A DNA stretch of 64,000 nucleotides from Beijerinckiaceae bacterium (GTDB lineage Bacteria > Pseudomonadota > Alphaproteobacteria > Rhizobiales > Beijerinckiaceae). A program made the position numbers and the translations under genes. Location of the stretch: positions 894 to 64,893 of the forward strand of contig JALORF010000001.1 in the NCBI GenBank assembly GCA_025459195.1. Direction: 5' to 3'. The notes beneath the pieces are model-generated. The model saw only the letters and a program-made list of their open reading frames with translations. It was not told the origin of the DNA and searched no databases. Positions 15,119-38,086 of the stretch are shown here, in pieces; positions within the stretch are counted from its first letter, which is position 1; each line of letters opens with the position of its first letter.

Positions 15119-15846
15119 CCTTTCACTGCAAAACGAACATTTCGCCGTCGCCGGATCGGCCAGCGCATCACCAGCAGCACCGTGCCGGCCAGACCCAGCA
15201 CCAGCCCGCCGATGGCAAAGGTCAACAACCACCACGTGTTGAAGTTATCGCGTTCCGTCCAATCCATGATGTGCAGGCCCCAGAAAAAGTCGAACAGGCG
15301 CCAGTTGGCGGTACGCACTGCGGCGATCTGCCCGGTATTGGCGGCCACGAAGACACTGGTGTGATCGGGATCGGGAAAGGCCACGCGCCACGCCGGCAAC
15401 GGGCCGCGATATTCGGGGCTGGCGGTCGTCACCCTCGACGCGGTCGGCGCGCCGCTGGCGGGGCCGATCCAGGCCTTGCGGACGATGGCCGCAGCCAGAC
15501 CGGCATCGACGGCAGGCAGCCGTGCACCGGTCACGGCATCAAACAGCGTGACGTCGCCGCCGCGGCTCACTTCAACGACGGCGCGGCCGTGCAGCATGCG
15601 CAAGGTGATGCGCTCGGCGCTCTTGCCATTCATGAAGCGCGCTGGATCGGACAGCGTGACACGGGCCGGCAGCAGCTCCACAGCCTTGCGATCGACCAGA
15701 TGATCGCCGTGGATTTCTTCGATTGGCCAGAAGCTCATCAGCGCGCCGCTGGCAAACCAGATCAGCAACTGCGCGCCGATGATCAGCGCCAACCATTTGT
15801 GCAGCCGGCTGGCGACAAGGTGAAAGCGCTGGCGGCGTGACGGCAA
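15115..15846 (-). CDS. PepSY-associated TM-helix membrane protein
   Basis: LHKWLALIIGAQLLIWFASG and DFFWGLHIMDW; TTG start; coupled to the DUF411 gene. Confidence 0.85.
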   Translation of the reverse strand: MPSRRQRFHLVASRLHKWLALIIGAQLLIWFASGALMSFWPIEEIHGDHLVDRKAVELLPARVTLSDPARFMNGKSAERITLRMLHGRAVVEVSRGGDVTLFDAVTGARLPAVDAGLAAAIVRKAWIGPASGAPTASRVTTASPEYRGPLPAWRVAFPDPDHTSVFVAANTGQIAAVRTANWRLFDFFWGLHIMDWTERDNFNTWWLLTFAIGGLVLGLAGTVLLVMRWPIRRRRNVRFAVKG

Positions 15847-15885
15847 GATCGGCTCCCTGAGCGGAGAATGAGCAGCGGTATGTGC

Positions 15886-17157
15886 CTAGAACCAGGCGCG
15901 AATGCCAGCAACGACATGAAGAAAGCTGGGGCTTTCGCCAGCTGCCCTGGCGAAGCGGGCGCTATCGCCGACCTTGCTGACCCATTCGACGCCAACATAC
16001 GGCGCGAATTCTCGGCGCACTTCATAGCGCAACCGCATCCCCAGCTCGATGTCGGTCACGCCTGCACCACTGCCAAGTTCGGGAATGCGCTGCGCCGAAA
16101 AATTGATCTCGCCGCGCGGCTGCAGGATCAAACGCTGGGTAACGCGTTGATCGTAGAAACCCTCGGCCCGCGCCGTCACTTCGCCTTTGTTCGACAGGAA
16201 GATCGAGCCAACCGTCCGGAACCAGTAGGGTGCCAGGCCTTCGATGCTGGCCACGGCAAAGGTGCGCTGCGGGTTAGGTCGAATATCTTGGCGCACACCG
16301 ACCTGCCAATTCCACCATGGATCAAAGGCCCGCGAATAGAGCGCCTGCACCTCTGCCTTTTCCGTGACGCCGCGGATGTCGCCTTCGCCTTCTGTCCTGA
16401 CGACGAGCCGGTTCACATCGCCACCGAACCAGCCCTCGCCTTCCCAGCGATAGCCATCCGCGCCTTTGCGGGCGACATATTCGGCGATGTTGAACAGGAT
16501 GAAGCTGCTCTGGAAATTGCCATGTTCGTCGCGCAGCTGCTGCCGCGACGGTGCCTGCACAGCGGCTCCCCAAATGGCATCGGCAGCGTGATCGGTTGGT
16601 GGCGATGGGGCCGGGGTCGTACCGATCTCCTCGGCAGGCACCGCAGCCATTCCCTGCATTGCGCCCATATTGTGCCCGGCGTGCGGATCAGCGGCGGGTG
16701 TTGCCGGGGCCGCAGGGGCCATCCCCGGCATCGCGCCCATATTGTGCCCGGCGTGCGGATCAACAGCTGGCGCTGCCGGGGCCGCAGGGACCATTCCCGG
16801 CATTGCGCCCATGTTGTGCCCGGCGTGCGGATCAGCAGTGGATGCTGCCGGGGCCGCAGGGGCCATCCCCGGCATCGCGCCCATGTTGTGCCCGGCGTGC
16901 GGATCAACAGCTGGCGCTGCCGGGGCCGCAGGGGCCATTCCCGGCATCGCGCCCATTTCATGACCGGCGTGCGGGTCGGCCGCCGGCTTGGCTTTGGGCG
17001 CGCCTGCCGGCTTTGGCAGTGGCTTGGGCTTCGCAGCGGCTGGCTTGGGCGCAGCGGGCTTTGCTTGAGGCATGGCCATGCCGGGCATCATGGACGGCTG
17101 CGCTGCGACTTGCGCTGCGAGGCTTGCGGCGAGGGCGACGATCAGAAAGGCCTTCAT
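15886..17157 (-). CDS. copB: Copper resistance outer-membrane protein B
   Basis: Met/His-rich N-terminal region followed by a CopB barrel (WEGEGWFGGDVNRL..EFAPYVGVEW..GIRAWF); 4-bp overlap with the multicopper oxidase. Confidence 0.92.
   Translation of the reverse strand: MKAFLIVALAASLAAQVAAQPSMMPGMAMPQAKPAAPKPAAAKPKPLPKPAGAPKAKPAADPHAGHEMGAMPGMAPAAPAAPAVDPHAGHNMGAMPGMAPAAPAASTADPHAGHNMGAMPGMVPAAPAAPAVDPHAGHNMGAMPGMAPAAPATPAADPHAGHNMGAMQGMAAVPAEEIGTTPAPSPPTDHAADAIWGAAVQAPSRQQLRDEHGNFQSSFILFNIAEYVARKGADGYRWEGEGWFGGDVNRLVVRTEGEGDIRGVTEKAEVQALYSRAFDPWWNWQVGVRQDIRPNPQRTFAVASIEGLAPYWFRTVGSIFLSNKGEVTARAEGFYDQRVTQRLILQPRGEINFSAQRIPELGSGAGVTDIELGMRLRYEVRREFAPYVGVEWVSKVGDSARFARAAGESPSFLHVVAGIRAWF
16650..16980 (-). 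repeat. 72-bp tandem repeat x5 inside copB (DPHAGHNMGAMPGMAPAAPAAPAV)
   Basis: The gcgcccat(a/g)ttgtgcccggcgtgcggatc core recurs at about 16661, 16733, 16805, 16877 and 16949. Confidence 0.95.
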
Positions 17158-18992
17158 GCCGCATCCTCGTCCTTGCGCACGGTCACGACACGGAACATCC
17201 CGGCATGCATGTGCAGCAACATGTGGCAATGGAAAGCCCAGTCACCCAGCGCATCGGCGGTCAGATCGAACGCCACCTTGGCGCCCGGCAGCACATTGAC
17301 GGTATGCTTGACCGGGCGATTGCCCTTTTCACCTGTCACCAGCTCGAAGAAGTGACCGTGGATATGGATCGGGTGCGGCATCATCGTGTCATTGATCAGG
17401 TTGACGCGCACGCGCTCGTTGTAGCGGAAGGCGATCGGATCGGCACCCTCGCTGAACTTCACGCCATCGAACGACCACATGTAACGTTCCATGTTGGCGG
17501 TGAGGTGAATATCAATTTCGCGCGAGGGGTTGCGCGGATCGGGATTGGGATCGAGCGAGCGCAACTGGCTGTAGGTCAGCACCCGGTGCGGTTCGTTCTC
17601 GAGGCCGGTGGGGCGTTCGCCGGTGCGGTCCATCGGCATCGGCGCCAGCGTTGCAACGCCGGGGCCCATCTTGACCTGCGGCGCAACCGAAGGATCGAGC
17701 ATCTTCATCGATCCCATATCGTGACTCATGCCGGCCATGGCGCCGCCGCTCATGTCCATCTTGCTGTGATCCATGCCGGCCATGGGAGCGCCGGCCGGCT
17801 CAGCAGCGGTACTCCCCGCAGGCATCGCCATTCCCGGCATTTTGCTGTGGTCCATGCCAGCCATGGCGCCGCCGCCGCTCATGTCCATCTCGCCCATGCC
17901 CATGTCTTTCATGGTCAGCAGCGGCCGCTTGCGCAGCGCCGGCACCGGGCCGATCATGCCCATGCGCGGCGCCAGCGTGGCCCGCACAAGGCCGGAACGG
18001 TCGATGCCCTCGGCGATAAAGCCATAGGCCTTGTCCTCGGTCGGGCGAACGACGATGTCATAGGTTTCGGCCACGCCGATCTGGAACTCGTCGGTTTCCA
18101 CCGGCTGGACATTGTTACCGTCGGTGCCGACGACAGTCATGGCCAAGCCGGGGATGCGCACGTTGAAATTGGTCATCGCAGCGGCATTGACGATGCGCAG
18201 CCGCACCCGCTCGCCCGGCTTGAACAGGCCGGTCCAGTTTTCATCGGGGCCGTGTCCGTTGACAAGATAGGTGTAGATCGCGCCGGTGGAATCCGAAATG
18301 TCGGTCGGGTCCATGCGCATCTGGCCCCACATCCGCCGTTCGGCCGCCGACTGGTCCTTGCCGGCGAGCAGACCACCCAGTGTCTGCTTCTGGAAATTGA
18401 AGTTGCCGCCGTTCTGCTTCAGCTTCTTGTAAACCGTGTGTGGATGCACGAAGCTCCAGTCGCTGAGCACGATGACATGCTCGCGGTCGAACCCGACGGG
18501 ATCGGCACCGGCCGGATCGATGACGATCGAGCCATAGTGGCCCATCGCTTCCTGAAGGCCCGAATGGCTGTGATACCAATAGGTGCCTGCCTGACGGATC
18601 GGGAACTCGTACACAAACGTCTGACCTGGCTTGATACCCGGAAAGCTGACGCCGGGCACACCATCATATTGAAACGGCAGCAGCAACCCGTGCCAGTGGA
18701 TCGAGGTGTCTTCCGCCAGCGTGTTGGTCACCGACAGCCGGACGTTCTGGCCTTCTTTCAACCGGATGAACGGGCCGGGAACGCTGCCATTGATGGCAAT
18801 GGCGTGGCCGGTGCGGCCGCCGACCGTGAAGGGGGCATGGCCGATACTAAGCCTGATATCCTCGCCCGACAGCACGTCGCTCGCGGCATTGAGGCCAGCG
18901 CTGCCACTGCGCGCCCAAGCCGGCACCGCCAGCGCGCCACTGACAAGTGATGCAGCGCGCAGAAAGCCGCGGCGAGACGTGAGAAGGGTCAT
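17154..18992 (-). CDS. copA: Copper-resistance multicopper oxidase (CopA/PcoA type), Tat-exported
   Basis: SRRGFLR Tat motif; HWHG, WYHSH, HPIHIHGH and HCHMLLH copper motifs; Met-rich insert. Confidence 0.96.
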   Translation of the reverse strand: MTLLTSRRGFLRAASLVSGALAVPAWARSGSAGLNAASDVLSGEDIRLSIGHAPFTVGGRTGHAIAINGSVPGPFIRLKEGQNVRLSVTNTLAEDTSIHWHGLLLPFQYDGVPGVSFPGIKPGQTFVYEFPIRQAGTYWYHSHSGLQEAMGHYGSIVIDPAGADPVGFDREHVIVLSDWSFVHPHTVYKKLKQNGGNFNFQKQTLGGLLAGKDQSAAERRMWGQMRMDPTDISDSTGAIYTYLVNGHGPDENWTGLFKPGERVRLRIVNAAAMTNFNVRIPGLAMTVVGTDGNNVQPVETDEFQIGVAETYDIVVRPTEDKAYGFIAEGIDRSGLVRATLAPRMGMIGPVPALRKRPLLTMKDMGMGEMDMSGGGAMAGMDHSKMPGMAMPAGSTAAEPAGAPMAGMDHSKMDMSGGAMAGMSHDMGSMKMLDPSVAPQVKMGPGVATLAPMPMDRTGERPTGLENEPHRVLTYSQLRSLDPNPDPRNPSREIDIHLTANMERYMWSFDGVKFSEGADPIAFRYNERVRVNLINDTMMPHPIHIHGHFFELVTGEKGNRPVKHTVNVLPGAKVAFDLTADALGDWAFHCHMLLHMHAGMFRVVTVRKDEDAA

Positions 18993-19064: not shown

Positions 19065-19640
19065 AGATTTGGGCTGCGACACTTCAGCCGTGCCGGCGAG
19101 CGCCTTGCGGGCGCGGTAAACACGCACTTCAACGGCCTTCTCGCTGATCCCCAGCACCGCTGCGGCCTCCGCCTGGGACAGGCCTTCGATGGCAGTCAGG
19201 ATAAGGGGCTCCTTCAGATTGGCCGGCAGTGCTGCAATGGCACGCGTTACCCGGGCGAGAGCGCGGGCATCATCGATGGCTACCTCAGGGGCTACGTCCG
19301 GCTCGGCAATCTCGCTGGCTGCATCCAGCGGCAGTGCAAAGCGCAGCACGCGCCTGACCAGCCGCCGCCGCCCCCAGTCGCGGCATTTGTTGAGTGCGAT
19401 GCGGTTGATCCAGTATCGAAAAGGCCGACCGCGGTCATAGCGCTCGATGGCCGCAAAGGCCGCGACGAAACATTCCTGCACCACATCCAGCGCTTCGTCG
19501 GCGTCGCCGATGTGGCTGCGCACCAGGCGGAACACCGGTTCACGGTGACGCCGCATCAGTTCGCTGAACGCCGCCTGGCGCCCGGCCAGCGCCAGCACAG
19601 CGAGTTCACTGTCAGCGCAGTCGGTGAGCGGCATTGTCAC
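19062..19640 (-). CDS. ECF RNA polymerase sigma factor (CnrH/NccH-like)
   Basis: Region 2 (DEALDVVQECF..YWINRIALNKCRD) and region 4 (GLSQAEAAAVLGISEKAVEVRVYRARK). Confidence 0.9.
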   Translation of the reverse strand: MTMPLTDCADSELAVLALAGRQAAFSELMRRHREPVFRLVRSHIGDADEALDVVQECFVAAFAAIERYDRGRPFRYWINRIALNKCRDWGRRRLVRRVLRFALPLDAASEIAEPDVAPEVAIDDARALARVTRAIAALPANLKEPLILTAIEGLSQAEAAAVLGISEKAVEVRVYRARKALAGTAEVSQPKS

Positions 19641-19647
19641 CGCGGCA

Positions 19648-20088
19648 TCATTCGCTCGGGGCTGTCAGCGCCTTGACTGCCGCTGCATCGAACCGGCGCG
19701 CCTGCTCCGGCCGCAGCACGCTGCGCACCCGGAACACATGCTGCAACGTCTCCTTCTGGAGTTCTCCCATCGCCTGATGTGATCGGTCTACTGCCGCCTG
19801 CACGCCGGGACCGTAGCCGTGCTCGGCGGTAATGGCCCGCGCCAGGCGAGCATTGTCGGCGCGCAATTCTTGCTCAAGCGCCTGCTTGCGCGCGGCAAAC
19901 TGCTGTTCCAGTGCTCCAATCTGCACACGCTGCGCGGCATCGAGTTCAAGTCTCTCATGCAGGATTGCATGTAGCTCAGTCTCGGGCGGTGCCAGCCGGG
20001 TGACCAGCGCACGCCCCGCAAACACACCGCCCACCGCCGCGATAAATGCCACCGCAGCAACGATGGCCAGTCGGCCGACATTGCTCAT
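19648..20088 (-). CDS. Periplasmic heavy-metal sensor (CnrX/NccX-like)
   Basis: One N-terminal TM helix, ELHAILH, then EH..DRSHQAMGELQKETLQHV helical domain; lies between the anti-sigma and sigma genes. Confidence 0.85.
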   Translation of the reverse strand: MSNVGRLAIVAAVAFIAAVGGVFAGRALVTRLAPPETELHAILHERLELDAAQRVQIGALEQQFAARKQALEQELRADNARLARAITAEHGYGPGVQAAVDRSHQAMGELQKETLQHVFRVRSVLRPEQARRFDAAAVKALTAPSE

Positions 20089-20363
20089 CCGACGCTGGCC
20101 AACAGGGTTGAGGGCGCCAGCTCCGAACCAGCAAACAACGGTGAACCCGGTGCAGCGACCACCGACCCACCCGGCAGCACTGTGGTGCCCATGCCGACAC
20201 CGAGCGCCAGCAGAGCTGCCAGACTGAGTGCGGTTCGGCTGCTGAGTGCGAGCGCGCTGCGCTCGGCATCGATGCCCGCCATCACAACAGTTTCAAGTGT
20301 CGCCAGCCGGGCCGGCACCGGCAGCGACCGCAAGCGCAAAAATGCTCCGTCGAGGTCATCCAT
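20085..20363 (-). CDS. Single-pass anti-sigma factor (CnrY/NccY-like)
   Basis: 92 aa with a cytoplasmic N-terminus, one TM helix and a C-terminal ELAPSTLL; Y-X-H gene order. Confidence 0.7.
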   Translation of the reverse strand: MDDLDGAFLRLRSLPVPARLATLETVVMAGIDAERSALALSSRTALSLAALLALGVGMGTTVLPGGSVVAAPGSPLFAGSELAPSTLLASVG

Positions 20364-20391
20364 TTTCTTCACTCCCAACCAACTTCTCGCC

Positions 20392-20418
20392 ATACGCGCG
20401 CCGGCCGTGCGGCCCTCA
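20392..20418 (-). promoter_or_regulatory. ECF-sigma promoter for the anti-sigma/sensor/sigma operon
   Basis: Minus strand TGAGGG-ccgcacggccggcgcg-CGTAT (16-bp spacer). Confidence 0.75.
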
Positions 20419-20429
20419 CCAGGAAAATT

Positions 20430-20456
20430 TGAGGGGGAGGCTTGCGGCATGCGTAA
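20430..20456 (+). promoter_or_regulatory. ECF-sigma promoter for copCD
   Basis: TGAGGG-ggaggcttgcggcatg-CGTAA (16-bp spacer), about 28 bp before the copC start. Confidence 0.75.
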
Positions 20457-20484
20457 GTGCGATTGAATAACCTGGAGACGTTTG

Positions 20485-20871
20485 ATGAAGACCATATACA
20501 ATCTGCTTGCAACCGTCCTGCTTCTGGCGCTCGGCGCCTCTGGCCCTGCGATGGCCCATGCCAAGCTTGTTTCTTCCACGCCCGCCGCGAACGGAACTGT
20601 CGACAAGCCGGGCAAGGTCGTTCTGGTTTTCAGCGAAAAGCTGATGGCAAAGTTCGCTGGCGCCGAACTCGTGATGACCAGCATGCCGGGCATGGCGGAC
20701 CATCAGCCGATGAAGATCACCGGTTTCACCACGGCGATGAGCGCCGATGGCAAGACGATGACCCTTTTGATGAAGCGCGCGCTGGCCAGCGGGACCTATG
20801 AAGTGAAGTGGTTCGCCGGCGGCGCCGATGCTCACCGGATGGAAGGCAGCTTCCCCTTCACTGTCAAATAA
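20485..20871 (+). CDS. copC: Periplasmic copper-binding protein CopC
   Basis: Signal peptide ending AMA, mature N-terminal HAKLVSSTP, Met motif MTSMPGM, and DAHRMEG. Confidence 0.93.
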   Translation: MKTIYNLLATVLLLALGASGPAMAHAKLVSSTPAANGTVDKPGKVVLVFSEKLMAKFAGAELVMTSMPGMADHQPMKITGFTTAMSADGKTMTLLMKRALASGTYEVKWFAGGADAHRMEGSFPFTVK

Positions 20872-25724: not shown

Positions 25725-26096
25725 TCAAGGCCGCGGTCCTTCCGCGCGCAGCTCGACCAGGTCATTCTTGCTGGGTGACCCGCTAATCACCGTTGCCTGT
25801 GCGAAATGCTCGTCGAACACCTCGGTCAGCCGGATGCGCCCGATGTTTTGCAGCCGCCATGCCGTGCTACCCTTCGCGCCGATGCCCGTATTCGTCACGC
25901 GCGTGACCAACAATTCCTGGCCGATCTTGGCGCCGTCGCTACGCCCGACGCACACCGTTATGGCACCGTTGTCGTTCGCCACAATAGTGCCGCGCATAAT
26001 TCGGTGCCAGAGTCCTTGAGCATTGGAAACCGACGGCAGAGCAATCATTGCTCCGACAAGGGTTGTCATCATCAAAGTCTTGCCAGAAATCGTCAT
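25725..26096 (-). CDS. Secreted beta-rich hypothetical protein (FlgT C-terminal-like)
   Basis: Signal peptide, MRGTIV..VCVGRSDGAKIGQEL..EVFDEHFAQATVISG; same strand as the copper-storage gene. Confidence 0.7.
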   Translation of the reverse strand: MTISGKTLMMTTLVGAMIALPSVSNAQGLWHRIMRGTIVANDNGAITVCVGRSDGAKIGQELLVTRVTNTGIGAKGSTAWRLQNIGRIRLTEVFDEHFAQATVISGSPSKNDLVELRAEGPRP

Positions 26097-27327: not shown

Positions 27328-28617
27328 TCATTTGGTAGCGGTCGCTGCTGCCAGTGTCTGGATTGCCGCTGCCAGCTTGTCCACGTCGACCGTGCTGGTG
27401 AACAGCGAAGGCGTTGCGCGAATACAGGTGCCGCCGGAAAGACCGATCCGGTGCACAGTCATGATGCCAAAGCGGTTCAGAAGCACATCGGTTAGCGCGA
27501 TGTTGGCCGCCGGGGTCGTTTGTCCATGCAGCCGGAACGATGTGGTCGCACCATAGAGGGATGGATCATCGGGCAGCAGCACCTCCACGCCAGGAATGCT
27601 GCGTACCTGCGACACCCAGCGGTTTCGCAGGAACTGAAGACGTCCGATTTTGGCGCCGCGGTCAATGGTTGCTTGAAAATCCAGTGCGGCCGGTACCGTC
27701 AATTGTGGGGCAAAGTCGACTGTTCCCTGATGAACCTTTGCCTGCACGTCTTCCGGCCCGGCGTCCGGGAGCTCAGGGGCAGGCGCAATTGCAGAAGCCA
27801 TACCCTTGCGAACCCAGATAGCAGCCACCCCAAGCGGTGCACCCACCCACTTGTGGAAGTTGAGACCCACGAAGTCGGCGCCAAAATCTGGTATCCTAAA
27901 CGGAATCTGGTAGAAGCTCTGCGCGCAATCAACGATGGCCTGCGCTCCGTGGGCCTTTACGAGCGGCACGATTTCGCTGACTGGCAAAACAAGGCCGTTG
28001 CGATGGCTCATGTGCGTGAGCAGCACCAGTTTCAAACGGGGTGCGCGGGCAAACGCCTCGCGATAGGCTTCAATCAGGTTCGCGCGAGTCATCTGCGCAG
28101 GCAGGTTGATCTTGATGGCCTGTGCGCCGCGTGCAGCAGCCAGCGATCGCATTGCACCCTGCGTGGTCTCGTAATCGGTATCAGCAAAAAGGATCTGATC
28201 ACCGGCACCAACATCGCGATATTGCATGATAAGTGCCGTCAATCCTTCGGCAGCATTGCGACACCAGCCCACTTCTTCGGGCAGCACGCCCATCGCCTCT
28301 GCCGCCCGCTCCTTCGCGCGCGCCTGATCGGCAATCATGGCGCGCCGCGCATACCAGCTGTTGTCGCGGTTCAGCCGCGCGACCTGCTCCCTGTGCGCCG
28401 CTGCTACCGGCTCAGCCATGCTGCCCCAGTACGCATTTTCCAGCTGAACGATTTCGCGCGTGACAGGATAAAGAGCGGCAATCTTGGCCCATCTGGCCTC
28501 GTCGGACGGACTGTGAGCCGCAACAGCCTGACTCGTTACAGCGCTTTCAGCCACACCCGCCCCGTACAGAACGGTGGTTGCACCCAGGATAGCGGTGCGG
28601 CGGGTCACTTCTGTCAT
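27328..28617 (-). CDS. Class V PLP-dependent enzyme (isopenicillin-N-epimerase/EgtE-like) with a Tat-like signal
   Basis: LENAYWG, VDCAQS, NFHKWVGAP (PLP Lys); N-terminal TRRTAILG. Confidence 0.88.
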   Translation of the reverse strand: MTEVTRRTAILGATTVLYGAGVAESAVTSQAVAAHSPSDEARWAKIAALYPVTREIVQLENAYWGSMAEPVAAAHREQVARLNRDNSWYARRAMIADQARAKERAAEAMGVLPEEVGWCRNAAEGLTALIMQYRDVGAGDQILFADTDYETTQGAMRSLAAARGAQAIKINLPAQMTRANLIEAYREAFARAPRLKLVLLTHMSHRNGLVLPVSEIVPLVKAHGAQAIVDCAQSFYQIPFRIPDFGADFVGLNFHKWVGAPLGVAAIWVRKGMASAIAPAPELPDAGPEDVQAKVHQGTVDFAPQLTVPAALDFQATIDRGAKIGRLQFLRNRWVSQVRSIPGVEVLLPDDPSLYGATTSFRLHGQTTPAANIALTDVLLNRFGIMTVHRIGLSGGTCIRATPSLFTSTVDVDKLAAAIQTLAAATATK

Positions 28618-28809
28618 GATCGTTCCTTATGCGGCATTTTCATTCTGCCCTCTCTCGCAGTCACAACTGCCATTATACCACTTTTGCATGATAAACAGCT
28701 TATTTCGCATTTGATGTAAACCTTACCTTCGCACAACCTCCGCCATCAAGGGCCAGCTTTAACGGGCTGCGGCAATCACGGTGCAACCGCGATCAAGGGG
28801 ACGGGGGAA

Positions 28810-31320
28810 ATGAGGAAATTTTCGAAAACGATGGAAACGGGAGCACTCAGGTCAGTGTCTGCGACGGCACTTTGGGCGGCGCTGCTCTACTCCGGTACCG
28901 CTTTTGCGCAGGAACAGGCGGCGTCCGACAAGGATGCGGCCCAGTCCGACCAGATGATCATTGTGACGGGCACCCGCCGTGAAGGTGTGACTGCCCTTGA
29001 GTCGGCCAGGCCAGTGGACATCATTTCGGCCGAAGTGCTCACGAGGCAGGGCGCTTCGAACCTGAACGATGCCCTGCGCAACGCTGTCCCCTCGCTCAAC
29101 GTTCAGCAGTTCGTCGCGCAGGACGGCTCGGCCTTCATCCGCCCGTTCAGCTTGCGCGGGCTGCCGCCGGATCAGACACTGGTGCTGCTGAACAACAAGC
29201 GCCGTCACCGTTCGGCGCTGGTGCAGATCACCAACCAGCCGCTGGCCGCTGGTGCGCAGGGCCCTGACCTTTCCAGCATCCCGACCATCGCCATCAAAAG
29301 CATCGAAGTGCTGCGCGATGGTGCCGCAGCGCAATATGGATCGGATGCCATCGCCGGCGTGATCAACTTTCGCCTGAAGGACGGTTCGGATGGGCTGACG
29401 ATGAGCGCCCGTTATGGCCAATTCTATGAAGGCGACGGCGAAGATGTCACGCTCGCCGCCAATGCTGGCTTTAAGCTGGCGGAAGGCTTCATCAACCTCA
29501 GCGGTGAGTATGTCCGCGCCAAGCCGACGTCGCGCGGGGCCCAGCGCCCTGATGCGCAGGCCCTGATCAATGCCGGGAACACGGCGGTGCCGGTGCCGGC
29601 GCAGCGCTGGGGCAATGTCAACACCGAGGCCGCACGCTTCCTGCTGAATGCCGAGATGCCAGCATCCGACACCGCCACCGTCTATCTTTTCGGCAATTAT
29701 GCGTGGAGCACGGGCGATACCGAATTCTTCTATCGCAATCCCGTTACCCGCACCGATATCTTCCGCAGTGTGCCACTGACCAACCAGCCCGGCGGCCGGC
29801 GATTCAACTTCAACACGCAGTTTCCCGGCGGCTTCACGCCGATTTTCGGCACCGATATCGAAGACCTAAGCATCGCCGGCGGCGTGCGCGGCGAGCTTGG
29901 CGATATCCGCTATGATCTCAGCGCCATCGCGGCGCAGAACCGGGTGCGCTACAATCTGCGCAACACGGTCAACCCATCGCTTGGCCCCCAGTCGCCAACC
30001 CGGTTCAATGCCGGCAAGGTGACCCAGCGTGAAACCCAGTTCCACGCCGACTTTGTTTACCCGCTCGAGATCGGTCTGGCCGAACCGCTCAATGTCGCCT
30101 TCGGCGCCGAGTATCGCCGCGAGGCGTTCGAGATCACAGCCGGCGATGTCGCTTCCTATATTGCCGGACCGTTCGCGCGCGTCCTTGATCCGGACAACAA
30201 CAATCTGCCGATCGGTCTGGCGGTTGGGTCCTCTGGCTTCCCCGGCTACGCGCCGTCGTCTGCCGGCAGTTGGGCGCGCTCCAACTGGGCAGCCTATGTC
30301 GATGTCGAAGGTGACCTGGCCGACGGCCTGAACCTCGGTGTCGCCGGCCGGTTCGAGGATTTCTCTGACTTTGGCAGCACCTTCAACTGGAAGGTGTCCG
30401 GCCGCTATGAGTTGACCGACTGGATGGCTATTCGCGCATCCTACAGCACCGGCTTCCGTGCACCGACGCCCGGCCAGGCAAATATCTCCGATGTGGCCAC
30501 CAACATCGATTTGGTCACCGGCGGGCTGCTGCTCACCACGACGCGACCGCCCACCGACCCTGTTTCGCAATTCTATGGTGCGCAGCCCCTGAACCGGGAG
30601 AAATCCAAGAACGTCGCGGCCGGCGTGGTGTTCGACATTCCTGGCGGCTGGGTGCTGACCGCGGATTATTTCAACATCAAGGTTGATGACCGCATCGCGT
30701 TGACGTCGCGCATACCGATTACGGCTGCTGACCGGATCGCCATGGCGGCACGCGGGATCGATCCCGGCGATGTGCAGACGGTGCGCTTCTTCGGCAATTA
30801 CTTCGATTCGCGCACCCAGGGTTTCGATATCGTGTTCTCGAAGAACTGGCGGCTGGGCGGGGACACCAGCCTCGGCGTGAACGCTTCGCTCAACTACACC
30901 AAGAACGAAGTCGGCAACGTGCGTGATGCGCGCGCGGTGGACCGCGAACGCCGGATCGAAATCAACGCCTTCAACCCGCAGTGGCGGGGCAGCATTACAG
31001 GGACGCTTGAGTCGGGTAATTTCACCGGACTGCTGCGCGCCAGCTATTTCGGCAAATGGACCGATGCCGTTGCCAATGCGGTGCCCACCGTCAATGCCTT
31101 CGACCAGACGTTCGGCGCCAAGGTGCTTGTCGATCTGGAAATTGGCTATGATGTCACCAAAACGATCAATGTCGCGGTCGGTGCCAACAATGTGTTCGAC
31201 GTCTATCCAGACCGCGACCGGCGTCCCGGGCAGCAGAACAACGGCATCATCTATCCGCAGTTCTCGCCCTTCGGGTTCAGCGGCGGCTTCTGGTATCTGC
31301 GGGCGAACGTGAAATTCTGA
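28810..31320 (+). CDS. TonB-dependent receptor
   Basis: Signal peptide (AFA), MIIVTGTR, plug IEVLRDGAAAQYGSDAIAGVIN, C-terminal YLRANVKF. Confidence 0.93.
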   Translation: MRKFSKTMETGALRSVSATALWAALLYSGTAFAQEQAASDKDAAQSDQMIIVTGTRREGVTALESARPVDIISAEVLTRQGASNLNDALRNAVPSLNVQQFVAQDGSAFIRPFSLRGLPPDQTLVLLNNKRRHRSALVQITNQPLAAGAQGPDLSSIPTIAIKSIEVLRDGAAAQYGSDAIAGVINFRLKDGSDGLTMSARYGQFYEGDGEDVTLAANAGFKLAEGFINLSGEYVRAKPTSRGAQRPDAQALINAGNTAVPVPAQRWGNVNTEAARFLLNAEMPASDTATVYLFGNYAWSTGDTEFFYRNPVTRTDIFRSVPLTNQPGGRRFNFNTQFPGGFTPIFGTDIEDLSIAGGVRGELGDIRYDLSAIAAQNRVRYNLRNTVNPSLGPQSPTRFNAGKVTQRETQFHADFVYPLEIGLAEPLNVAFGAEYRREAFEITAGDVASYIAGPFARVLDPDNNNLPIGLAVGSSGFPGYAPSSAGSWARSNWAAYVDVEGDLADGLNLGVAGRFEDFSDFGSTFNWKVSGRYELTDWMAIRASYSTGFRAPTPGQANISDVATNIDLVTGGLLLTTTRPPTDPVSQFYGAQPLNREKSKNVAAGVVFDIPGGWVLTADYFNIKVDDRIALTSRIPITAADRIAMAARGIDPGDVQTVRFFGNYFDSRTQGFDIVFSKNWRLGGDTSLGVNASLNYTKNEVGNVRDARAVDRERRIEINAFNPQWRGSITGTLESGNFTGLLRASYFGKWTDAVANAVPTVNAFDQTFGAKVLVDLEIGYDVTKTINVAVGANNVFDVYPDRDRRPGQQNNGIIYPQFSPFGFSGGFWYLRANVKF

Positions 31321-31346
31321 TCCAGCCGGCCTGACGGAGACCCAGG

Positions 31347-31814
31347 GTGACCAGCTTGATCCCGCAGCGCCTTGCCGAACTGGGCATCGCCATGCCGCAC
31401 GTGCCGCCAGCGGTGGCCAATTATGTGCCGTTCACACGGCTGGGCAGGCTTGTCACCATTTCCGGGCAATTGCCGCGCAGCGATGACGGCCTGATTACTG
31501 GCGTGCTGGGCAACGGCACGTCGATTGATCGCGGTGTTCTTGCGGCGCGGCAATGCGCAGTGGCCGTTCTTGCCGTCCTGAACGAGGCTCTCGAAGGCGA
31601 TGCCGAGCGGCTTGCCGGCTGTGTGCAGCTGTGCGGCTACGTTCAGTCAGCGCCGGGTTTTACCGAACATTCCACCGTGCTGAACGGCGCGTCCGATCTG
31701 GTGGCCGCGGTACTGGGTGATCGCGGACGCCACGCTCGCACTGCCGTTGGCGTGGCCAGCCTGCCGTTCGGCGTGGCAGTGGAAGTCAGCGCCCAGTTCA
31801 GGCTTCTCGGGTAG
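31347..31814 (+). CDS. RidA/YjgF-family protein
   Basis: VANYVP, ISGQLP, NGASDL..GRHARTAVGVASLP..AVEV. Confidence 0.9.
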   Translation: MTSLIPQRLAELGIAMPHVPPAVANYVPFTRLGRLVTISGQLPRSDDGLITGVLGNGTSIDRGVLAARQCAVAVLAVLNEALEGDAERLAGCVQLCGYVQSAPGFTEHSTVLNGASDLVAAVLGDRGRHARTAVGVASLPFGVAVEVSAQFRLLG

Positions 31815-31824
31815 CGCGCCGCCC

Positions 31825-32760
31825 TCAAGCCGGTCCGGTCACTGCGCCAAACCGCGATTCACAGGCTTTCTGCAGGCTGTCGCGTTCCACTTCGAGGATT
31901 TTCAGCAGATCTTCCAGCAGCCGCGACCGGCCGCGGTGCGGCGGCAGGATCATCAAGGCCCGGAAGGTAATGGCCGGCTCGAACGGACGCGCCACCAGAC
32001 CACGCGTTTCGAATTCGCTCGCGACGAAGGATACGGCGTTGGTCAGCCCGATGCCGGCACCTTCGGCCACCAGCTGGCACACGCTGGCGCCGAACTGGGT
32101 TTCCACCACCACCTTGGGTTGCGCCCCCATCAGGCGCAGGGCGGCATCGAGCTGCTTGCGCGCGGTATCGTCTGGCGAAAGCGACACCAGTGGCACACCA
32201 TCAAGATCGATCGGCGTCACCGTCTTCAGCTGCGCCAGCGGATGGTCAGCGGGCATGACGCAGACCCCGCGGGTGGCCAGAAAAGGCTCGGCCACCACGT
32301 TGGTGGTATCGATTTCGTCCGCACACAGGCCGATGTCGTGCGTGCCGCTGGCCACCAGATTGCGCACCATACTGGAATTGGCGATCTCGAATGTAACGGT
32401 GACGCCGGGGTGACGTTCGATGAACAATGTGATCACGCGCGGGATCAGTGACAGGCCAAGGGCGGCCGATGTGGCGATCCGCAGCGATCCGGTGCCCACC
32501 GACCGGATGCGCGCCACCGCCTGCTTCAGGCGATCGAGACCGACATAGGTATCGACAATCTCCTGATAGAGAAGCTCTGCCTCCGGGGTCGGGATCAGGC
32601 GCGGGCCCTGGCGTTCGAACAGCTTCAGCCGGGTCACATCTTCCAGTCGCTTGAGGGAACGGCTGATGGCCGGCTGCGACACGCCCAGAAGTTCGGCGCC
32701 GCGCGTGGTCGATCCGGTGCGCATGACGGCATTGAAGGCTTCGATGAGGCTGAGATTCAT
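31825..32760 (-). CDS. LysR-family regulator
   Basis: AFNAVMRTGSTTRGAELLGVSQPAISRSLKRLE..LFER; divergent from metC. Confidence 0.93.
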   Translation of the reverse strand: MNLSLIEAFNAVMRTGSTTRGAELLGVSQPAISRSLKRLEDVTRLKLFERQGPRLIPTPEAELLYQEIVDTYVGLDRLKQAVARIRSVGTGSLRIATSAALGLSLIPRVITLFIERHPGVTVTFEIANSSMVRNLVASGTHDIGLCADEIDTTNVVAEPFLATRGVCVMPADHPLAQLKTVTPIDLDGVPLVSLSPDDTARKQLDAALRLMGAQPKVVVETQFGASVCQLVAEGAGIGLTNAVSFVASEFETRGLVARPFEPAITFRALMILPPHRGRSRLLEDLLKILEVERDSLQKACESRFGAVTGPA

Positions 32761-32854
32761 GGCGTCCAGTATAACCGAAACGCATAATGATGCGCCATAC
32801 TTGGATTTGAAACGACCCGGATGCACGCCTAGCGTGCCGGCCAAGGAGAAGGGC

Positions 32855-34042
32855 ATGCACGACGATACGAAATGCCTTAAGATAAAAGCGCCGCAGGGCA
32901 GCTTCGCCAGCCTGTCGGTACCCGTTTATCGCGCGTCCACTGTCGTGTTCGGCAGCGTGGCGGCCTACCAGAACCGCCGCGCGGCCATGTATGATGGCTA
33001 TTCATATGGCCTGTATGGCACGCCCACCAGCCGCGCGCTGGAACATGCAATTGCTGGCCTGGAAGGCGCCAGCCGGGCGCTGGTGGTATCGTCAGGCTTT
33101 GCCGCCATCACGCTTGTCACGCTGGCATTGTCGAAGTCCGGCAGCCGCGTCCTGTTTCCCGACAATGTCTATGACACGGTGCGCCCTTTCGCCGAGAATC
33201 TGCTTGCCCGCTATGGCGTGACGCCGGTCTATTATGATCCGCTGATCGGCAGCGGTATCGCCGGCCTGCTTGGCCCGGATGTGTCGCTGGTGTGGCTTGA
33301 ATCGCCGGGCTCGATGACGCTGGAAGTGCAGGACATGCCAGCGATTGCTGCGGCATGCTGCGCGCAGGGCATCCGCACGGCGGCCGATAATACCTATGCC
33401 ACAGCGCTGCGCTGCAAGCCGCTTGACCTCGGCGTTGATGTTTCCGTCTGCGCGGTGTCGAAATATGTCTCAGGCCATTCCGATGTGGTGATGGGTTCGA
33501 TCGCGCTGCGCGATGAAGCGCTATTCCGTCAGTTGAAGGACAATGCCCGCATGTTGGGCCAAGGAGTATCGGCCGACGAGGCCAGCCTGGTGCTGCGCGG
33601 ACTGGAGACCATGGCTGTGCGGCTGGAGCGCATCGAGCGCACCGCCCTGTCCCTGCTGGCCATGCTGAACGCGCACCCGGCAGTGCGGGAAGTGCGGCAC
33701 CCGGCCTTGCCCGGCAACCCCGGCCATGCCGAATGGACACGGGATTTTTCGGGATCGACCGGCCTCATCACGCTGTTCCTCGAACCGTGGACGCGCCCGG
33801 TGCTGGCGCAGGCGGTGGAAGCGATGGACCAGTTCGCCATCGGCGCCAGCTGGGGCGGCACCAAAAGCGTGGTTGCCGTGCTCGACGCGCCGCCGCTGCG
33901 CACTGCCACACCATCTCCGCATGATGGACCTGTCGTGCGGCTTAGCATCGGCCTCGAGCATCCGGACGATCTTGCGCACAGCATTGCAAGGGGTTTCGAC
34001 ATTTTGACGTCGGCGCAGGCGTCGCTGGCCGTGGCCACATGA
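32855..34042 (+). CDS. metC: Cystathionine beta-lyase (trans-sulfuration PLP family)
   Basis: PVYRASTVVF, YGLYGTPT, LESPGS, DNTY, SKYVSGHSDVVMG, IGASWGG, RLSIGLE. Confidence 0.88.
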   Translation: MHDDTKCLKIKAPQGSFASLSVPVYRASTVVFGSVAAYQNRRAAMYDGYSYGLYGTPTSRALEHAIAGLEGASRALVVSSGFAAITLVTLALSKSGSRVLFPDNVYDTVRPFAENLLARYGVTPVYYDPLIGSGIAGLLGPDVSLVWLESPGSMTLEVQDMPAIAAACCAQGIRTAADNTYATALRCKPLDLGVDVSVCAVSKYVSGHSDVVMGSIALRDEALFRQLKDNARMLGQGVSADEASLVLRGLETMAVRLERIERTALSLLAMLNAHPAVREVRHPALPGNPGHAEWTRDFSGSTGLITLFLEPWTRPVLAQAVEAMDQFAIGASWGGTKSVVAVLDAPPLRTATPSPHDGPVVRLSIGLEHPDDLAHSIARGFDILTSAQASLAVAT

Positions 34043-34055
34043 TCGGGAGGGAAGC

Positions 34056-35093
34056 ATGATCCACCGGAGCACCAGAGGCACCCTGATTGCACTCATGCTG
34101 GCGACCAGCCTTGCCGGTTGCTCGGGCGGCAGCGCCAAAAAGGCAAGTCTGGTCGAAAAGATCAAGACGCGCGGCACGCTGGTCTGCTCCGGCAGCCAGG
34201 GCGTGCCAGGCCTGTCCCGCCCCGATGAAAAGGGCGTATGGCGCGGCTTTGACAGCGATATCTGCCGGGCCATCGCCGCGGCAATCCTTGGCGACGCCAG
34301 CAAGGTGCGCTTCGTGCCGCTCAATGCAGCACAGCGCCTGCCCGCAGTGCAGACCGGCGAGATCGACGTGCTGTCGCGCACCTCCACGCTCACCTTTTCG
34401 CGTGACATGGCGATCCGCTTCGTCACCAACACGCTTTATGATGGCGATGTCATCATTACCCGCAAGGTCGACGGCATCGATACGCCAGCCGGACTGAATG
34501 GCCGCACCATCTGCATGCAGGGTGGCGGCAGCCTGGTGGAAGGCGCCCTTGACGAGATCGAGGAATCCAACAGGATCAAGATGAAGCGGGTGTATTTCGA
34601 TTCCACCATCACAGCGCGGGATACATATTTCGCTGGCCGCTGCGATGCCTATGTCACCGATGGTCTTGCCGCCCAGAACCAGATTGCCACCGTGGCGCGC
34701 AATCCGGCCGATCACGCCATGATGCGCGCCGGCACCGCCGTGGAACCCAACGGCATCGCTATCCCGCGCGGCGATGACCGCATGTTCGATGTCGCGCGCT
34801 GGACGTTCAATGTGCTGTTGTGGGCTGAACAGAACGGCATCAACCAGGCCAATGTCGATCAGATGGCCAAATCCGGCAACAGCGGCGTGCGCCGCGTGCT
34901 GGGCGGCGATCCCAGTTTCGGCCGCGCCATGGGCCTGAAGCCTGACTGGGCCTATCAGGTGATCAAGCAGGTCGGCAATTATCAGGAGATCTGGGACCGG
35001 AACCTGGGGGAAGGCACACCGATTAAGGCCGATCGAAGCTACAACAAGCTCTATGCCAACGGCGGCCTGATGTTCCCGCTGCCATGGGATTGA
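34056..35093 (+). CDS. aapJ: Amino-acid ABC transporter substrate-binding lipoprotein
   Basis: Lipobox LAGC, GFDSDICRAIAAA, GEIDVLSR, VIKQVGNYQEI. Confidence 0.88.
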   Translation: MIHRSTRGTLIALMLATSLAGCSGGSAKKASLVEKIKTRGTLVCSGSQGVPGLSRPDEKGVWRGFDSDICRAIAAAILGDASKVRFVPLNAAQRLPAVQTGEIDVLSRTSTLTFSRDMAIRFVTNTLYDGDVIITRKVDGIDTPAGLNGRTICMQGGGSLVEGALDEIEESNRIKMKRVYFDSTITARDTYFAGRCDAYVTDGLAAQNQIATVARNPADHAMMRAGTAVEPNGIAIPRGDDRMFDVARWTFNVLLWAEQNGINQANVDQMAKSGNSGVRRVLGGDPSFGRAMGLKPDWAYQVIKQVGNYQEIWDRNLGEGTPIKADRSYNKLYANGGLMFPLPWD

Positions 35094-35124
35094 GCCGGCC
35101 ACGCCGCACGGCAGGAACGCGCCC

Positions 35125-36252
35125 ATGACCCGCGCCAAGCGCAATCTTGTGTATCAGGCTCTTGTACTGCTGCTCAGCTTCGCAGCGGTGGCGCTGGTGG
35201 GCGCGACGGCGGCGGCCAATCTGGAAAGCCGTGGGATCGAGCTGGGGCTGGAATTCCTCGGCGACCGGGCCGGGTTTGCGCTGTCGGAAACTTGGCTGCC
35301 CTATTCGCCCGACGACAGCAATCTGTGGGCGCTGCTGGTCGGGGTCGGCAACACGCTGATGGTCACCTTGCTGGTGGCCGTTCTGTCAACGGCCATAGGC
35401 GCAGGGCTGGGCATATTGCGGATCAGCGACAATCCGCTGTCGGGCGGGTTCGCGCGCGCCTGGGTGGAATTTTCGCGCAACACGCCGCCCATTCTGCTGC
35501 TGCTGTTCCTCTACAGCCTGTTGGGCCATGCGCTGCCGGTGGACAGGGCTGTCAGCCTCGGGGCCGGCATTCACCTCTCGCTGCGCGGGCTGGCCGTTCC
35601 GGCGCTTGATCTGGGCGGACAGGGGCACTGGCTGCTGCTGGCGCTGCTCGGCGGCCTTGCCGGCCTGTTTTTCGTGGGCCGTGCCGCCCGTTCCCGCCAG
35701 CAGCAAACCGGCATAAGGCCGCCCTGGCAGGCCATCAGCGCCGGAGTGCTGGCCGCGCTACTGGCCGGCTGGCTGCTGGGGCCGGGGCCGGGGGTGCAGC
35801 TGGACCTGCCGGTCGCCAACGGGCCCGATCTCAGCGGCGGTCTCATCCTGACGCCGGAGTTTTTCACTCTCATTGTCGGGCTGTCAGTCTATACCTCGGG
35901 TTTCATCGCTGAAATCGTGCGCACCGGCCTGCAATCAATCACGCTTGGCCAGTGGGAAGCCGCCTCTGCCCTGGGCCTCAGCCGCGGGCAGACGCTGCGG
36001 CTGGTGATCGTTCCGCAGATGCTGCGGGTCATCATTCCGCCGATGACCAGCCAATATGTGAACATCGTGAAAAACTCGACCCTGGTGATCGCCATTGGCT
36101 ACGCCGATTTCATGGTGACAGCCGGCACCATGATCAACAAGACCAGCAGGGCGGTCGAAGGCACACTGATCATCATCGCGGTCTATCTGCTCATCAACCT
36201 GGCGCTGGCGGCGGTGATGAACCACCTCAACCGCTCGTTCGAAAGGGCATGA
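35125..36252 (+). CDS. aapQ: Amino-acid ABC transporter permease
   Basis: GNTLMV, RNTPPIL, AEIVRTGLQSITLGQWEAASALGL (EAA loop). Confidence 0.88.
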   Translation: MTRAKRNLVYQALVLLLSFAAVALVGATAAANLESRGIELGLEFLGDRAGFALSETWLPYSPDDSNLWALLVGVGNTLMVTLLVAVLSTAIGAGLGILRISDNPLSGGFARAWVEFSRNTPPILLLLFLYSLLGHALPVDRAVSLGAGIHLSLRGLAVPALDLGGQGHWLLLALLGGLAGLFFVGRAARSRQQQTGIRPPWQAISAGVLAALLAGWLLGPGPGVQLDLPVANGPDLSGGLILTPEFFTLIVGLSVYTSGFIAEIVRTGLQSITLGQWEAASALGLSRGQTLRLVIVPQMLRVIIPPMTSQYVNIVKNSTLVIAIGYADFMVTAGTMINKTSRAVEGTLIIIAVYLLINLALAAVMNHLNRSFERA

Positions 36253-37325
36253 CGATGGCTACAACCGCCATGCCTGGCAGAGGCCGCGCCACAGGCCTGG
36301 CGCGCAGCCTGTTCGGCAGCCCGCTCAACTTTGCCGTCACCGCCGGCTTTGCGCTGCTGCTCTGGGCAACGCTGCCGTTCGTCGTGCGCTGGGCCATCCT
36401 CGATGCCGCCTTCCTCCCGGCTGTGCCTGAAACCTGCCGGGCGGCCGGCGGCGCCTGCTGGAGCTTCATCATCGCCAAGCACAGCCAGATCCTGTTCGGC
36501 ATCTACCCCTATGATGAACGCTGGCGGCCGATGATCGTGTGTCTGCTGCTGCTCGGCCTGCTGATCCATTCGGTGCGGCCGCAGGCCTGGCGGCCGTCGC
36601 TGGCGATCTGGTGGCTGGGTGCCCTGGCGGCATCCTGGCTGCTGCTGGCCGGCGGCATGTTTGGCCTGATCGAGGTGACAGCCGATAAATGGGGCGGCTT
36701 GCCGGTCACGCTGATCCTCACCGTGGTGGCCATCGGTTTCGGCTTCCCGACCGGTGTGCTGCTGGCGCTGGCCCGGCGCTCTTCTACCCTGCCGGTGATC
36801 AGGCTGCTGGCAACGCTGTTCATCGAGGTGACGCGCGCCCTGCCACTGCTCAGCATCCTCTTCATCGCCTCGATCATGCTGCCGCTGCTGGTGCCGGAAG
36901 CCTTCCTGCCCGACAAGTTCATGCGCGCCCTGATTGCGCTCTATCTGTTCGCATCGGCCTATATGGCCGAAGTTGTGCGGGGCGGCCTGCAGGCACTGCC
37001 GCGCGGACAGGATGAAGCGGCCGACGCACTGGGCCTGAACTACTGGCAAAAACAGCGCCTGATTATCCTGCCGCAGGCCGTGGCACTGGTTATCCCGGCG
37101 CTGACCAACACGGTGATTGTCATGATCAAGAACACCAGCCTTGTCCTGGTAGTTGGGCTGTTTGATTTGATCAGCTCGGGCAAGGCGGCACTGGCTGATC
37201 CGGAATGGCGTTCCCCCTCGGTTGAAGTCTATCTGTTCATCACTGCCATCTATTTTGTGCTCTGCTTCGGCTTCAGCCGGTTTGCCGACAGCCTGGAGCG
37301 CCGCGCCAAAGGGCCTGCCACATGA
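36249..37325 (+). CDS. aapM: Amino-acid ABC transporter permease
   Basis: [38 protein letters not shown]. Confidence 0.88.
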
Positions 37326-38086
37326 CTGTCGCCGCCACCATCACGCCAGCGCCCGGCCAGCCGGCCATCACCATGACAGGCGTGACCAAGAATTATGGCA
37401 GCTTCCAGGCCCTGCGTGGTGTTGATCTTGCGGTCGCGCGCGGCGAGCGGATTGTTATTTGCGGCCCGTCGGGTTCGGGCAAGTCAACGCTCATCCGCTG
37501 CATCAACCAGCTGGAACAGCATGAAGGCGGCCGGATTGTTGTCAACGGTGTCGAGGTCGGGCCGGAGCCGAAGCAGCTTGAAGCGATCCGCACACAGGTC
37601 GGCATGGTGTTCCAGAGCTTCAACCTGTTCCCACACCTGACGATTCTCGAAAACTGCATCCTCGGCCCGACATGGGTAAAGAAGTTGCCGCGTGCCGAGG
37701 CCGAGGCCAAGGCCATGGCGCTGCTGGAACGAGTGAAGATCCCCGATCAGGCGCACAAGCGGCCGGGCCAGCTGTCGGGCGGCCAGCAACAACGGGTGGC
37801 CATAGCACGGGCGCTCTGCATGGAACCCAGCATCATGCTGTTCGACGAGCCGACGTCGGCACTTGACCCGGAGATGGTCAAGGAAGTGCTGGACGTCATG
37901 CTCGAACTGGCCGGCGATGGTATGACCATGCTGGTTGTCACCCACGAAATGGGTTTCGCCCGTCAGGCCGCCGACCGGGTGATCTTCATGGATCAGGGAC
38001 AGATCATCGAGCAGGCGACGCCGCAGAGCTTCTTCGCCAATCCGCAGCACGAGCGCGCGCGGCTGTTCCTCAGCCAGATACTCTGA
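37322..38086 (+). CDS. aapP: Amino-acid ABC transporter ATP-binding protein
   Basis: [35 protein letters not shown]. Confidence 0.93.

Follow-up and report, generated by a model that had tools for sequence, protein, structure and literature searches.

LysR-type regulators bind sites built on a T-N11-A dyad, and Escherichia coli LysR senses diaminopimelate and activates lysA. The aapJQMP operon was reportedly described by Walshaw and Poole in 1996 as the general L-amino-acid permease of Rhizobium leguminosarum; its linkage to metC in rhizobia, which an earlier annotation of this DNA (here called the sequence-only reading) had taken as established, could not be confirmed in our literature search. 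Two associations are already known, namely the alphaproteobacterial metC/aap gene pair and the occurrence of Rid genes and cystathionine beta-lyase genes in common clusters (Niehaus et al. 2015, PMC4433059). In this study, we analysed a window of 64,000 nucleotides (the whole stretch of contig JALORF010000001.1 presented above), which makes up most of a 66-kb contig in a 3.2-Mb sphingomonad assembly, and found that both parts are joined there in a conserved, self-regulated unit of eight genes. This joined unit is found repeatedly inside sphingomonad and caulobacter copper-resistance islands. It comprises an operon for a TonB-dependent outer-membrane receptor and a Rid1 protein, a lysR gene converging on that operon, and a metC-aapJQMP operon divergent from lysR. 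With moderate confidence, we interpret the core (28675-38086) as one LysR-controlled regulon for the uptake and MetC-type cleavage of an amino-acid-like compound, likely a sulfur diamino acid.

To place this unit among its relatives, we used the receptor as the query on genome contigs and obtained 80 loci, each fetched with flanks of at most 10 kb, or shorter ones on short contigs. The order of receptor-Rid1, converging LysR and divergent MetC-AapJQMP was identical in L071 and L073-L082, at receptor identities of 60-88%; in all, at least 12 genomes of Sphingomonadales and Phenylobacterium share it. The hosts (Erythrobacter, Novosphingobium, Sphingorhabdus, Sphingomonadales metagenome-assembled genomes and five Phenylobacterium genomes) span two orders, and this recurrence puts the arrangement beyond chance. 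In another Phenylobacterium genome (L083) the genes of the block are rearranged and all lie on one strand. Receptor orthologues at 54-57% identity (L084-L087, L118) still lie beside a divergent LysR-MetC pair, with a MetC of a different clade. Where the neighbours of these partial clusters were annotated (L085, L087), an APC-family amino-acid permease stands in place of the Aap ATP-binding cassette (ABC) system. LysR and MetC were present beside every receptor orthologue in the 54-88% range. The constant partnership is therefore the receptor, LysR, MetC and some amino-acid transporter. Because the receptor keeps LysR and MetC where Aap is swapped for the APC permease and where the MetC clade differs, MetC, and not the ABC system, is its constant partner.

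Alignment of the lysR-metC intergenic regions and the receptor upstream regions revealed a common operator, ATA[AC]C-N6-GCAT with a T-N11-A dyad, followed by ATTTGA 18-19 nt further on. In the window it matches exactly twice (28675-28714 and 32771-32810, both on the plus strand), with no match expected in shuffled sequences; the pattern was built from these two sites, so this count is partly circular. The whole 3.2-Mb genome also holds exactly two matches, and the reversed control gave none. The first operator lies 96 nt 5' of the receptor ATG. The second, with the same architecture, lies 11 nt from the lysR ATG and 45 nt 5' of the metC ATG. We found the operator at the same two promoters in L076-L082, and versions with one mismatch upstream of the receptor in L071 and L073-L075. 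The operator is kept at both promoters in loci that have diverged to 60%, which makes this independent evidence. No match was detected in 60 other receptor loci (1.1 Mb), in 13 loci of paralogous LysR-MetC-AapJ genes or in the partial clusters; alignments of the partial clusters (L084-L087, L118) showed conserved upstream blocks and no clear common operator motif. With one operator in front of both, the two operons appear to form a single self-contained regulon, presumably governed by the LysR encoded between them. The proposal of the sequence-only reading that the receptor-rid and metC-aapJQMP operons belong together is thus borne out by the conserved block and the common operator.

These observations bear on the possibility that the receptor-Rid pair, the LysR-MetC-Aap genes and a neighbouring class V pyridoxal 5'-phosphate (PLP) enzyme gene, here termed PLP5, are independent cargo lying side by side on a mobile element. 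None of the 80 receptor loci had a PLP5 gene within the flanks fetched (up to 10 kb per side, shorter for the closest relatives), which fits such a juxtaposition. Also in its favour, a search for repeats flanking the island as an insertion scar found none that mark an inserted unit, and a search for near-identical DNA in the plasmid collection PLSDB matched only the ATPase gene, at 71-82%. Two of these ATPase matches, H10 and H3, were considered as related clusters and rejected as unrelated ABC systems without metC. However, the conservation of the eight-gene block across two orders already contradicts chance juxtaposition for the core genes, and the two operons have a genome-unique operator in common. 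We therefore regard chance juxtaposition as highly improbable. Of the unit as first drawn, the eight-gene core (28.7-38.1 kb) stands, and the class V PLP gene does not stand as a conserved member.

The lysR gene (31825-32760, minus strand) converges with rid1 and is divergent from metC. Its longest open reading frame reaches 32856, but the helix-turn-helix begins at residue 36 and the orthologues start at 32760. For metC, the true start is the ATG at 32855 in place of the TTG at 32651, in agreement with its orthologues. With starts at 32760 and 32855, the divergent intergenic region is 94 nt long. The regulator shows the features of the E. coli LysR subfamily (HTH_1 and LysR_substrate domains, a divergent target and a T-N11-A box) and shares 36% identity with E. 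coli LysR (b2839) along the whole protein. It scores 231.3 bits with NF008239, below the equivalog cut-off of 288, and the next best regulator model reaches 118 bits. Like E. coli LysR, it is divergent from its target and has the T-N11-A box beside its own start; unlike E. coli LysR, its target is not lysA and it has two target promoters. Diaminopimelate has thia-analogues among the substrates of MetC, namely lanthionine, cystathionine and cystine. That a thia-analogue of this kind might be the effector of LysR is a guess by analogy, and may serve as a lead only.

The metC gene (32855-34042, plus strand; PF01053, 280 bits) encodes a predicted beta C-S lyase of the cystathionine beta-lyase family. 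In a PDB search, the E. coli and Klebsiella MetC structures scored about 245-250 bits. The protein falls below the NCBIfam equivalog cut-offs (PRK07050, 407.5 versus 500 bits; TIGR01324, 336.2 versus 365.9 bits) and keeps the E. coli MetC residues Y56, G86, Y111, D185, K210, S339, W340 and R372, the PLP lysine among them. Its clade signature is L58, Y59, F87, P116 and R238, and the accessory clades differ from the usual MetC of the Sphingomonadaceae at positions 58, 59 and 238 (E. coli numbering). Arg238, which is typical of the accessory clades, may hold a distal carboxylate of the substrate.

The sequence-only reading would have been undermined had this MetC been only a housekeeping cystathionine lyase. 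We found instead that it is an accessory paralogue, separate from the usual chromosomal enzyme of the family. In the phylogenetic tree, the cluster-type MetC forms a clade of its own (support 100/99), grouped with most of the MetC proteins from the paralogous LysR-MetC-AapJ loci. The usual MetC, about 40% identical to that of the window, is present in nearly every genome of the family (150 sampled). Its gene is divergent to a chromosomal aapJQMP in 18/22 loci, without LysR, receptor or Rid, and the same holds in G104 and G140. A second MetC (44-51% identical) occurs in a minority of genomes, next to a divergent LysR and followed by AapJ with or without QMP. None of the 150 sampled genomes carries a MetC more than 51% identical to the window's, so this type is rare and scattered over two orders.

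We regard the module as an accessory offshoot, spread by horizontal transfer, of the metC/aapJQMP pair on alphaproteobacterial chromosomes. Like the chromosomal pair of the Sphingomonadaceae, it sets a MetC-family lyase beside a four-component Aap importer whose permeases are long and whose binding protein measures about 345 aa. Unlike that pair, the island unit has its own divergent LysR and operator, a joined TonB receptor-Rid1 operon and a separate MetC clade. Its metC is also co-directional with aapJQMP, with a 13-nt gap before aapJ, and it lies among metal genes on a conjugative element.

In the window's own assembly (96.7% complete), the usual chromosomal metC was not found. On contig C120 of this genome, G000 (L163), compared with its congeners G104 (L164) and G140 (L165), aapJ, aapQ and aapM are kept and tblastn finds neither metC nor aapP. 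The missing metC at this site may mean that the gene was lost and the island copy makes up for it, or that the assembly has a gap here. The genome also holds MetY-type genes for direct sulfhydrylation, so MetC is not required for methionine synthesis.

The rid1 gene (31347-31814, plus strand; PF14588/PF01042) begins 26 nt after the receptor gene and encodes a cytoplasmic imine/enamine deaminase. The protein scores 54.6 bits with PF14588 (cut-off 35), and its best PDB matches are 3D01 (128 bits), PA0814 and ACIAD3089. The arginine in its HARTAV segment aligns with the catalytic arginine of PA0814 and ACIAD3089, which is equivalent to RidA Arg105. It is not an archetypal RidA (TIGR00004, 24.9 bits versus a cut-off of 106.25). 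PA0814 and ACIAD3089 belong to the Rid1 subfamily, whose members show 2-aminoacrylate deaminase activity in vitro and can rescue a ridA mutant on serine or cysteine (PMC5619798). A physiological substrate is known for no Rid1 protein (PMC4433059, PMC5619798). Since the window's protein belongs to this arginine-bearing subfamily, the quenching of 2-aminoacrylate that had been proposed for it is chemically plausible. As in the known clusters of Rid and cystathionine beta-lyase genes, an arginine-bearing Rid accompanies a PLP enzyme that would form 2-aminoacrylate. Unlike in those clusters, the gene before rid1 encodes an outer-membrane receptor, and it is the common operator that ties rid1 to MetC.

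Downstream of metC, four plus-strand genes encode the importer. The binding protein AapJ (34056-35093; SBP_bac_3; 345 aa) is a predicted lipoprotein with a LAGC lipobox, and its best PDB match is 4Z9N (258 bits), named as Brucella BztA/AapJ (bioRxiv 10.64898/2026.05.04.722672). It is followed by the long permeases AapQ (35125-36252; BPD_transp_1 and HEQRo_perm_3TM; 375 aa) and AapM (36255-37325; BPD_transp_1, 77.6 bits; 357 aa), the aapM start following the aapQ stop. The start of the ATPase gene aapP (37322-38086; ABC_tran, 133 bits; GlnQ-like, 308 bits; 254 aa) overlaps the aapM stop. This set fits the AapJQMP/BztABCD/YhdWXYZ importers: a single operon, here tightly packed, encodes two long permeases, one ATPase and a binding protein of about 340 aa.

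The receptor gene (28810-31320, plus strand) encodes a protein of an uncharacterised subfamily with a signal peptide, a TonB-box-like segment, a Plug domain (77.7 bits) and a 22-strand barrel (123.2 bits). It reached no NCBIfam cut-off, and we found no informative characterised relative.

The known ligands of such importers raise the possibility of ordinary Aap/Bzt uptake of general or polar amino acids for nitrogen and carbon. In this case, MetC and Rid would be inherited from the metC/aap neighbourhood, the receptor would take peptides or amino acids, and no specific sulfur substrate would be involved. The known substrates of AapJ, BztA and YhdW are Glu, Gln, Asp and Asn or L-amino acids over a wide spectrum, and sulfur compounds have no special place among them (bioRxiv 10.64898/2026.05.04.722672); on the chromosomes of the family, metC and aapJQMP are paired as a rule. 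In the clusters of the Sphingorhabdus group (L074, L076, L077), aapP is followed by a gene for aspartate ammonia-lyase (aspA), pointing to plain Asp/Asn catabolism. Together with the partly circular operator count and the LysR and MetC scores below equivalog cut-offs, these points weigh against a dedicated sulfur regulon. So do the promiscuity of MetC-family enzymes (E. coli MetC is annotated as lyase, desulfhydrase and alanine racemase) and the possibility that the island metC may substitute for the missing usual gene. However, MetC is the constant partner of the receptor even with the APC permease and the other MetC clade, and the genome already holds two other AapJ systems. The dedicated regulator and operator and the distinct MetC active-site signature also argue for a specific substrate. 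Ordinary uptake is therefore, in our view, quite improbable.

The aspA gene of L074 (19012-20673) scores 599 bits, above the cut-off. Another copy lies near the L118 partial cluster, and the gene is absent from the window and from Phenylobacterium.

For the LysR-controlled regulon, we take sulfur diamino-dicarboxylic acids that are thia-analogues of diaminopimelate (cystine, cystathionine, lanthionine or djenkolate) to be the most likely substrates. Nothing was found in favour of the D-amino acids or ergothioneine that had also been suggested; no dehydrogenase, oxidase or ergothionase gene was present in or beside the conserved block in the loci annotated.

We infer the following order of steps. 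The TonB-dependent receptor would bring the amino-acid-like compound through the outer membrane, and the lipoprotein AapJ-type binding protein and the AapQMP permease would move it into the cytoplasm. There, the accessory MetC-type PLP lyase would act by beta-elimination, giving a thiol or sulfane product and 2-aminoacrylate. Rid1 would hydrolyse 2-aminoacrylate/iminopropionate to pyruvate and ammonia before other PLP enzymes are damaged. LysR would bind the T-N11-A box before both operons and its own gene, and would switch them on with the substrate or a product. The whole module sits on a conjugative element among copper genes.

The metal clusters that the sequence-only reading saw on both sides of the island are present. 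The left flank carries copB, the multicopper oxidase gene copA, copD and genes for MerR-type regulators, and the right flank carries an efflux operon of the OEP-MFP-RND (resistance-nodulation-division) type. We examined the other loci for copper markers (multicopper oxidase CopA, CopB, CopD, copper P-type ATPase, CopL and MerR/CueR-like regulators) within 10 kb. They were found near the full cluster in L076, L077, L079 and L081/L082, near the partial clusters L084, L087 and L118, and near the truncated loci L070 and L126, in arrangements that vary by locus. Furthermore, 7/13 paralogous LysR-MetC-AapJ loci adjoin a copper/heavy-metal ATPase, MerR or RND efflux gene. Overall, about half of the accessory loci have copper or heavy-metal genes no more than 10 kb away, compared with 1/60 other receptor loci (RND matches only), 0/22 housekeeping metC loci and 0/13 distant PLP5 loci. 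Given the kinship of the loci and their frequent mobility, these counts are not independent. As a genomic pattern, the link to metal islands is genuine.

This pattern allows for a metal-stress device, in which the regulon, possibly with PLP5, imports a sulfur amino acid such as cystine and either forms sulfide, persulfide or thiol from it to sequester copper or refills the cysteine, methionine and glutathione pools that copper drains; it would then be a working part of the copper island. The copper markers near full, partial and truncated clusters, the paralogue loci and the nearly empty controls speak for it. The adjacent PLP5 family is itself a neighbour of copA-copB and has its own exact extracytoplasmic function (ECF) promoter motif in L173 and L174. 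However, the regulon comes with a LysR and an operator of its own, and the ECF promoter motif was not seen immediately 5' of its genes in any locus scanned (no search was made for MerR/CueR sites), so copper induction is not indicated. About half of the cluster loci (L074/75, L078, L080, L083, L085) have no copper marker within 10 kb. The receptor also lacks a conserved metal-ligand motif. Furthermore, the loci are related and often lie on mobile elements (TrbC in L085), so that co-carriage could explain the link, and our literature search found neither such a role nor any MetC-copper link described. We consider a metal-stress device possible but unlikely; a direct part in metal defence is no more likely than co-carriage or an indirect physiological benefit. 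Of the earlier suggestion that released sulfide might precipitate metals, the recurrent genomic association is upheld and the sulfide mechanism stays speculative.

The receptor was also considered as a copper receptor of the OprC/NosA type, and this was rejected, since the cluster-linked receptors have no Cys, His or Met that sets them apart. The only conserved residue of this kind among the cluster receptors is H133, which is also present in 80% of unrelated receptors, and the match to the CU-motif model is weak (18 bits versus a cut-off of 700).

The PLP5 gene (27328-28617, minus strand; PF00266, 90 bits) starts 58 nt from the first operator. Its product has a twin-arginine translocation (Tat) signal (TRRTAILG) and a PvdN-like architecture. 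Like PvdN (PDB 5I90), it combines the Tat signal with a class V fold and aligns over its full length; PvdN is also its best NCBIfam match. Unlike PvdN, it lies far below the equivalog cut-off (70.7 versus 650 bits), has no pyoverdine genes nearby and has its closest relatives in copA-copB operons. The PvdN structure and that of the cystine C-S lyase C-DES (1ELQ) give weak matches of 40-46 bits. PLP5 does not score as a cysteine desulfurase with the SufS model (69.7 versus 475 bits), and it has a non-Cys residue at the GTHC(A) cysteine of the SufS-like 4W91.

The closest relatives of PLP5 (64-80% identical, on metagenome contigs) lie directly beside copA-copB in L171, L173, L174, L175 and L192. 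In L173 and L174, the relative is preceded by its own exact TGAGGG-N15-GCGTA, the CnrH-type ECF promoter motif. The window holds three exact copies of this motif among its copper genes (19039, 20393, 20430). As a candidate promoter of the window's own PLP5 gene, only a version with two mismatches was seen (28628-28653); it is at chance level, with 18 expected, and was rejected. No close relative was found in 400 genomes of the order. On this evidence from close relatives, PLP5 belongs with the copper genes to its left.

More distant relatives (37-45% identical) directly follow a TonB receptor gene in 5/9 plasmid records: Novosphingobium PP1Y (L220), Asticcacaulis AND118 (L218) and Asticcacaulis DW145 (L221), Pseudoalteromonas TAC125 pMEGA (L219) and Blastomonas RAC04 (L222). 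Four of these five receptors are 38-40% relatives of the window receptor. The receptor and PLP families, paired on plasmids, thus cooperate elsewhere, and periplasmic processing by PLP5 in the window may still take place. As for the periplasmic processing step of the sequence-only reading, PLP5 is not a conserved member and its closest relatives are copper-operon genes, but the distant pairing leaves room for this role. Its participation in the regulon is uncertain. In the plasmid modules, the gap between receptor and PLP gene is 3-160 nt, and the hosts are alpha- and gammaproteobacteria. A Tat signal was confirmed in three annotated plasmid PLP genes, and the module of pMEGA stands alone among plasmid maintenance genes.

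The same observations permit a tentative and broader proposal, which we also rate as unlikely. Copper islands of Sphingomonadales and Caulobacterales might carry an unrecognised PLP-based companion for sulfur amino acids, made up of the LysR regulon and the Tat-exported PLP5, with PLP5 relatives behind the motif of the copper-associated ECF sigma factor of the island itself. It would take up a cystine-like compound and convert it to thiol, persulfide or sulfide in the periplasm and cytoplasm, buffering copper or repairing sulfur starvation caused by copper. Our literature search found no paper on a periplasmic or PvdN-like PLP enzyme in copper operons, and no description of the eight-gene cluster.

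All nine genes, PLP5 included, lie at the coordinates and in the orientations first assigned to them. We also noted several features around the clusters. The copper region of the window holds a second TonB receptor gene, FecA-like (12392-14668), and a 42-43% relative of it lies directly upstream of the cluster in L074 and L075. At 25725-26096, the window encodes a small secreted protein of a MerR-Csp operon. A 42% relative of this protein is encoded in L079 (9337-9804, a Phenylobacterium metagenome-assembled genome), directly upstream of the receptor gene and on the same strand; neither protein has a Pfam match. In L085 (Sphingomonas sp. IC-11; 14914-17441 and 19385-20617), genes for a threonine-synthase-like PLP enzyme and the APC permease continue the receptor-LysR-MetC unit, which adjoins an F-type TrbC conjugation gene and thus lies on a mobile element.

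The regulon ties a Rid1 gene, by a common operator, to a MetC-type lyase and an uptake route, and so offers a concrete, testable source of 2-aminoacrylate. It also assigns an uncharacterised subfamily of TonB receptors to amino-acid-type substrates. Accessory MetC modules and, separately, the Tat-exported PLP5 recur in copper and heavy-metal islands. This recurrence suggests that, in freshwater and plumbing alphaproteobacteria, selection keeps the handling of sulfur amino acids together with metal resistance.

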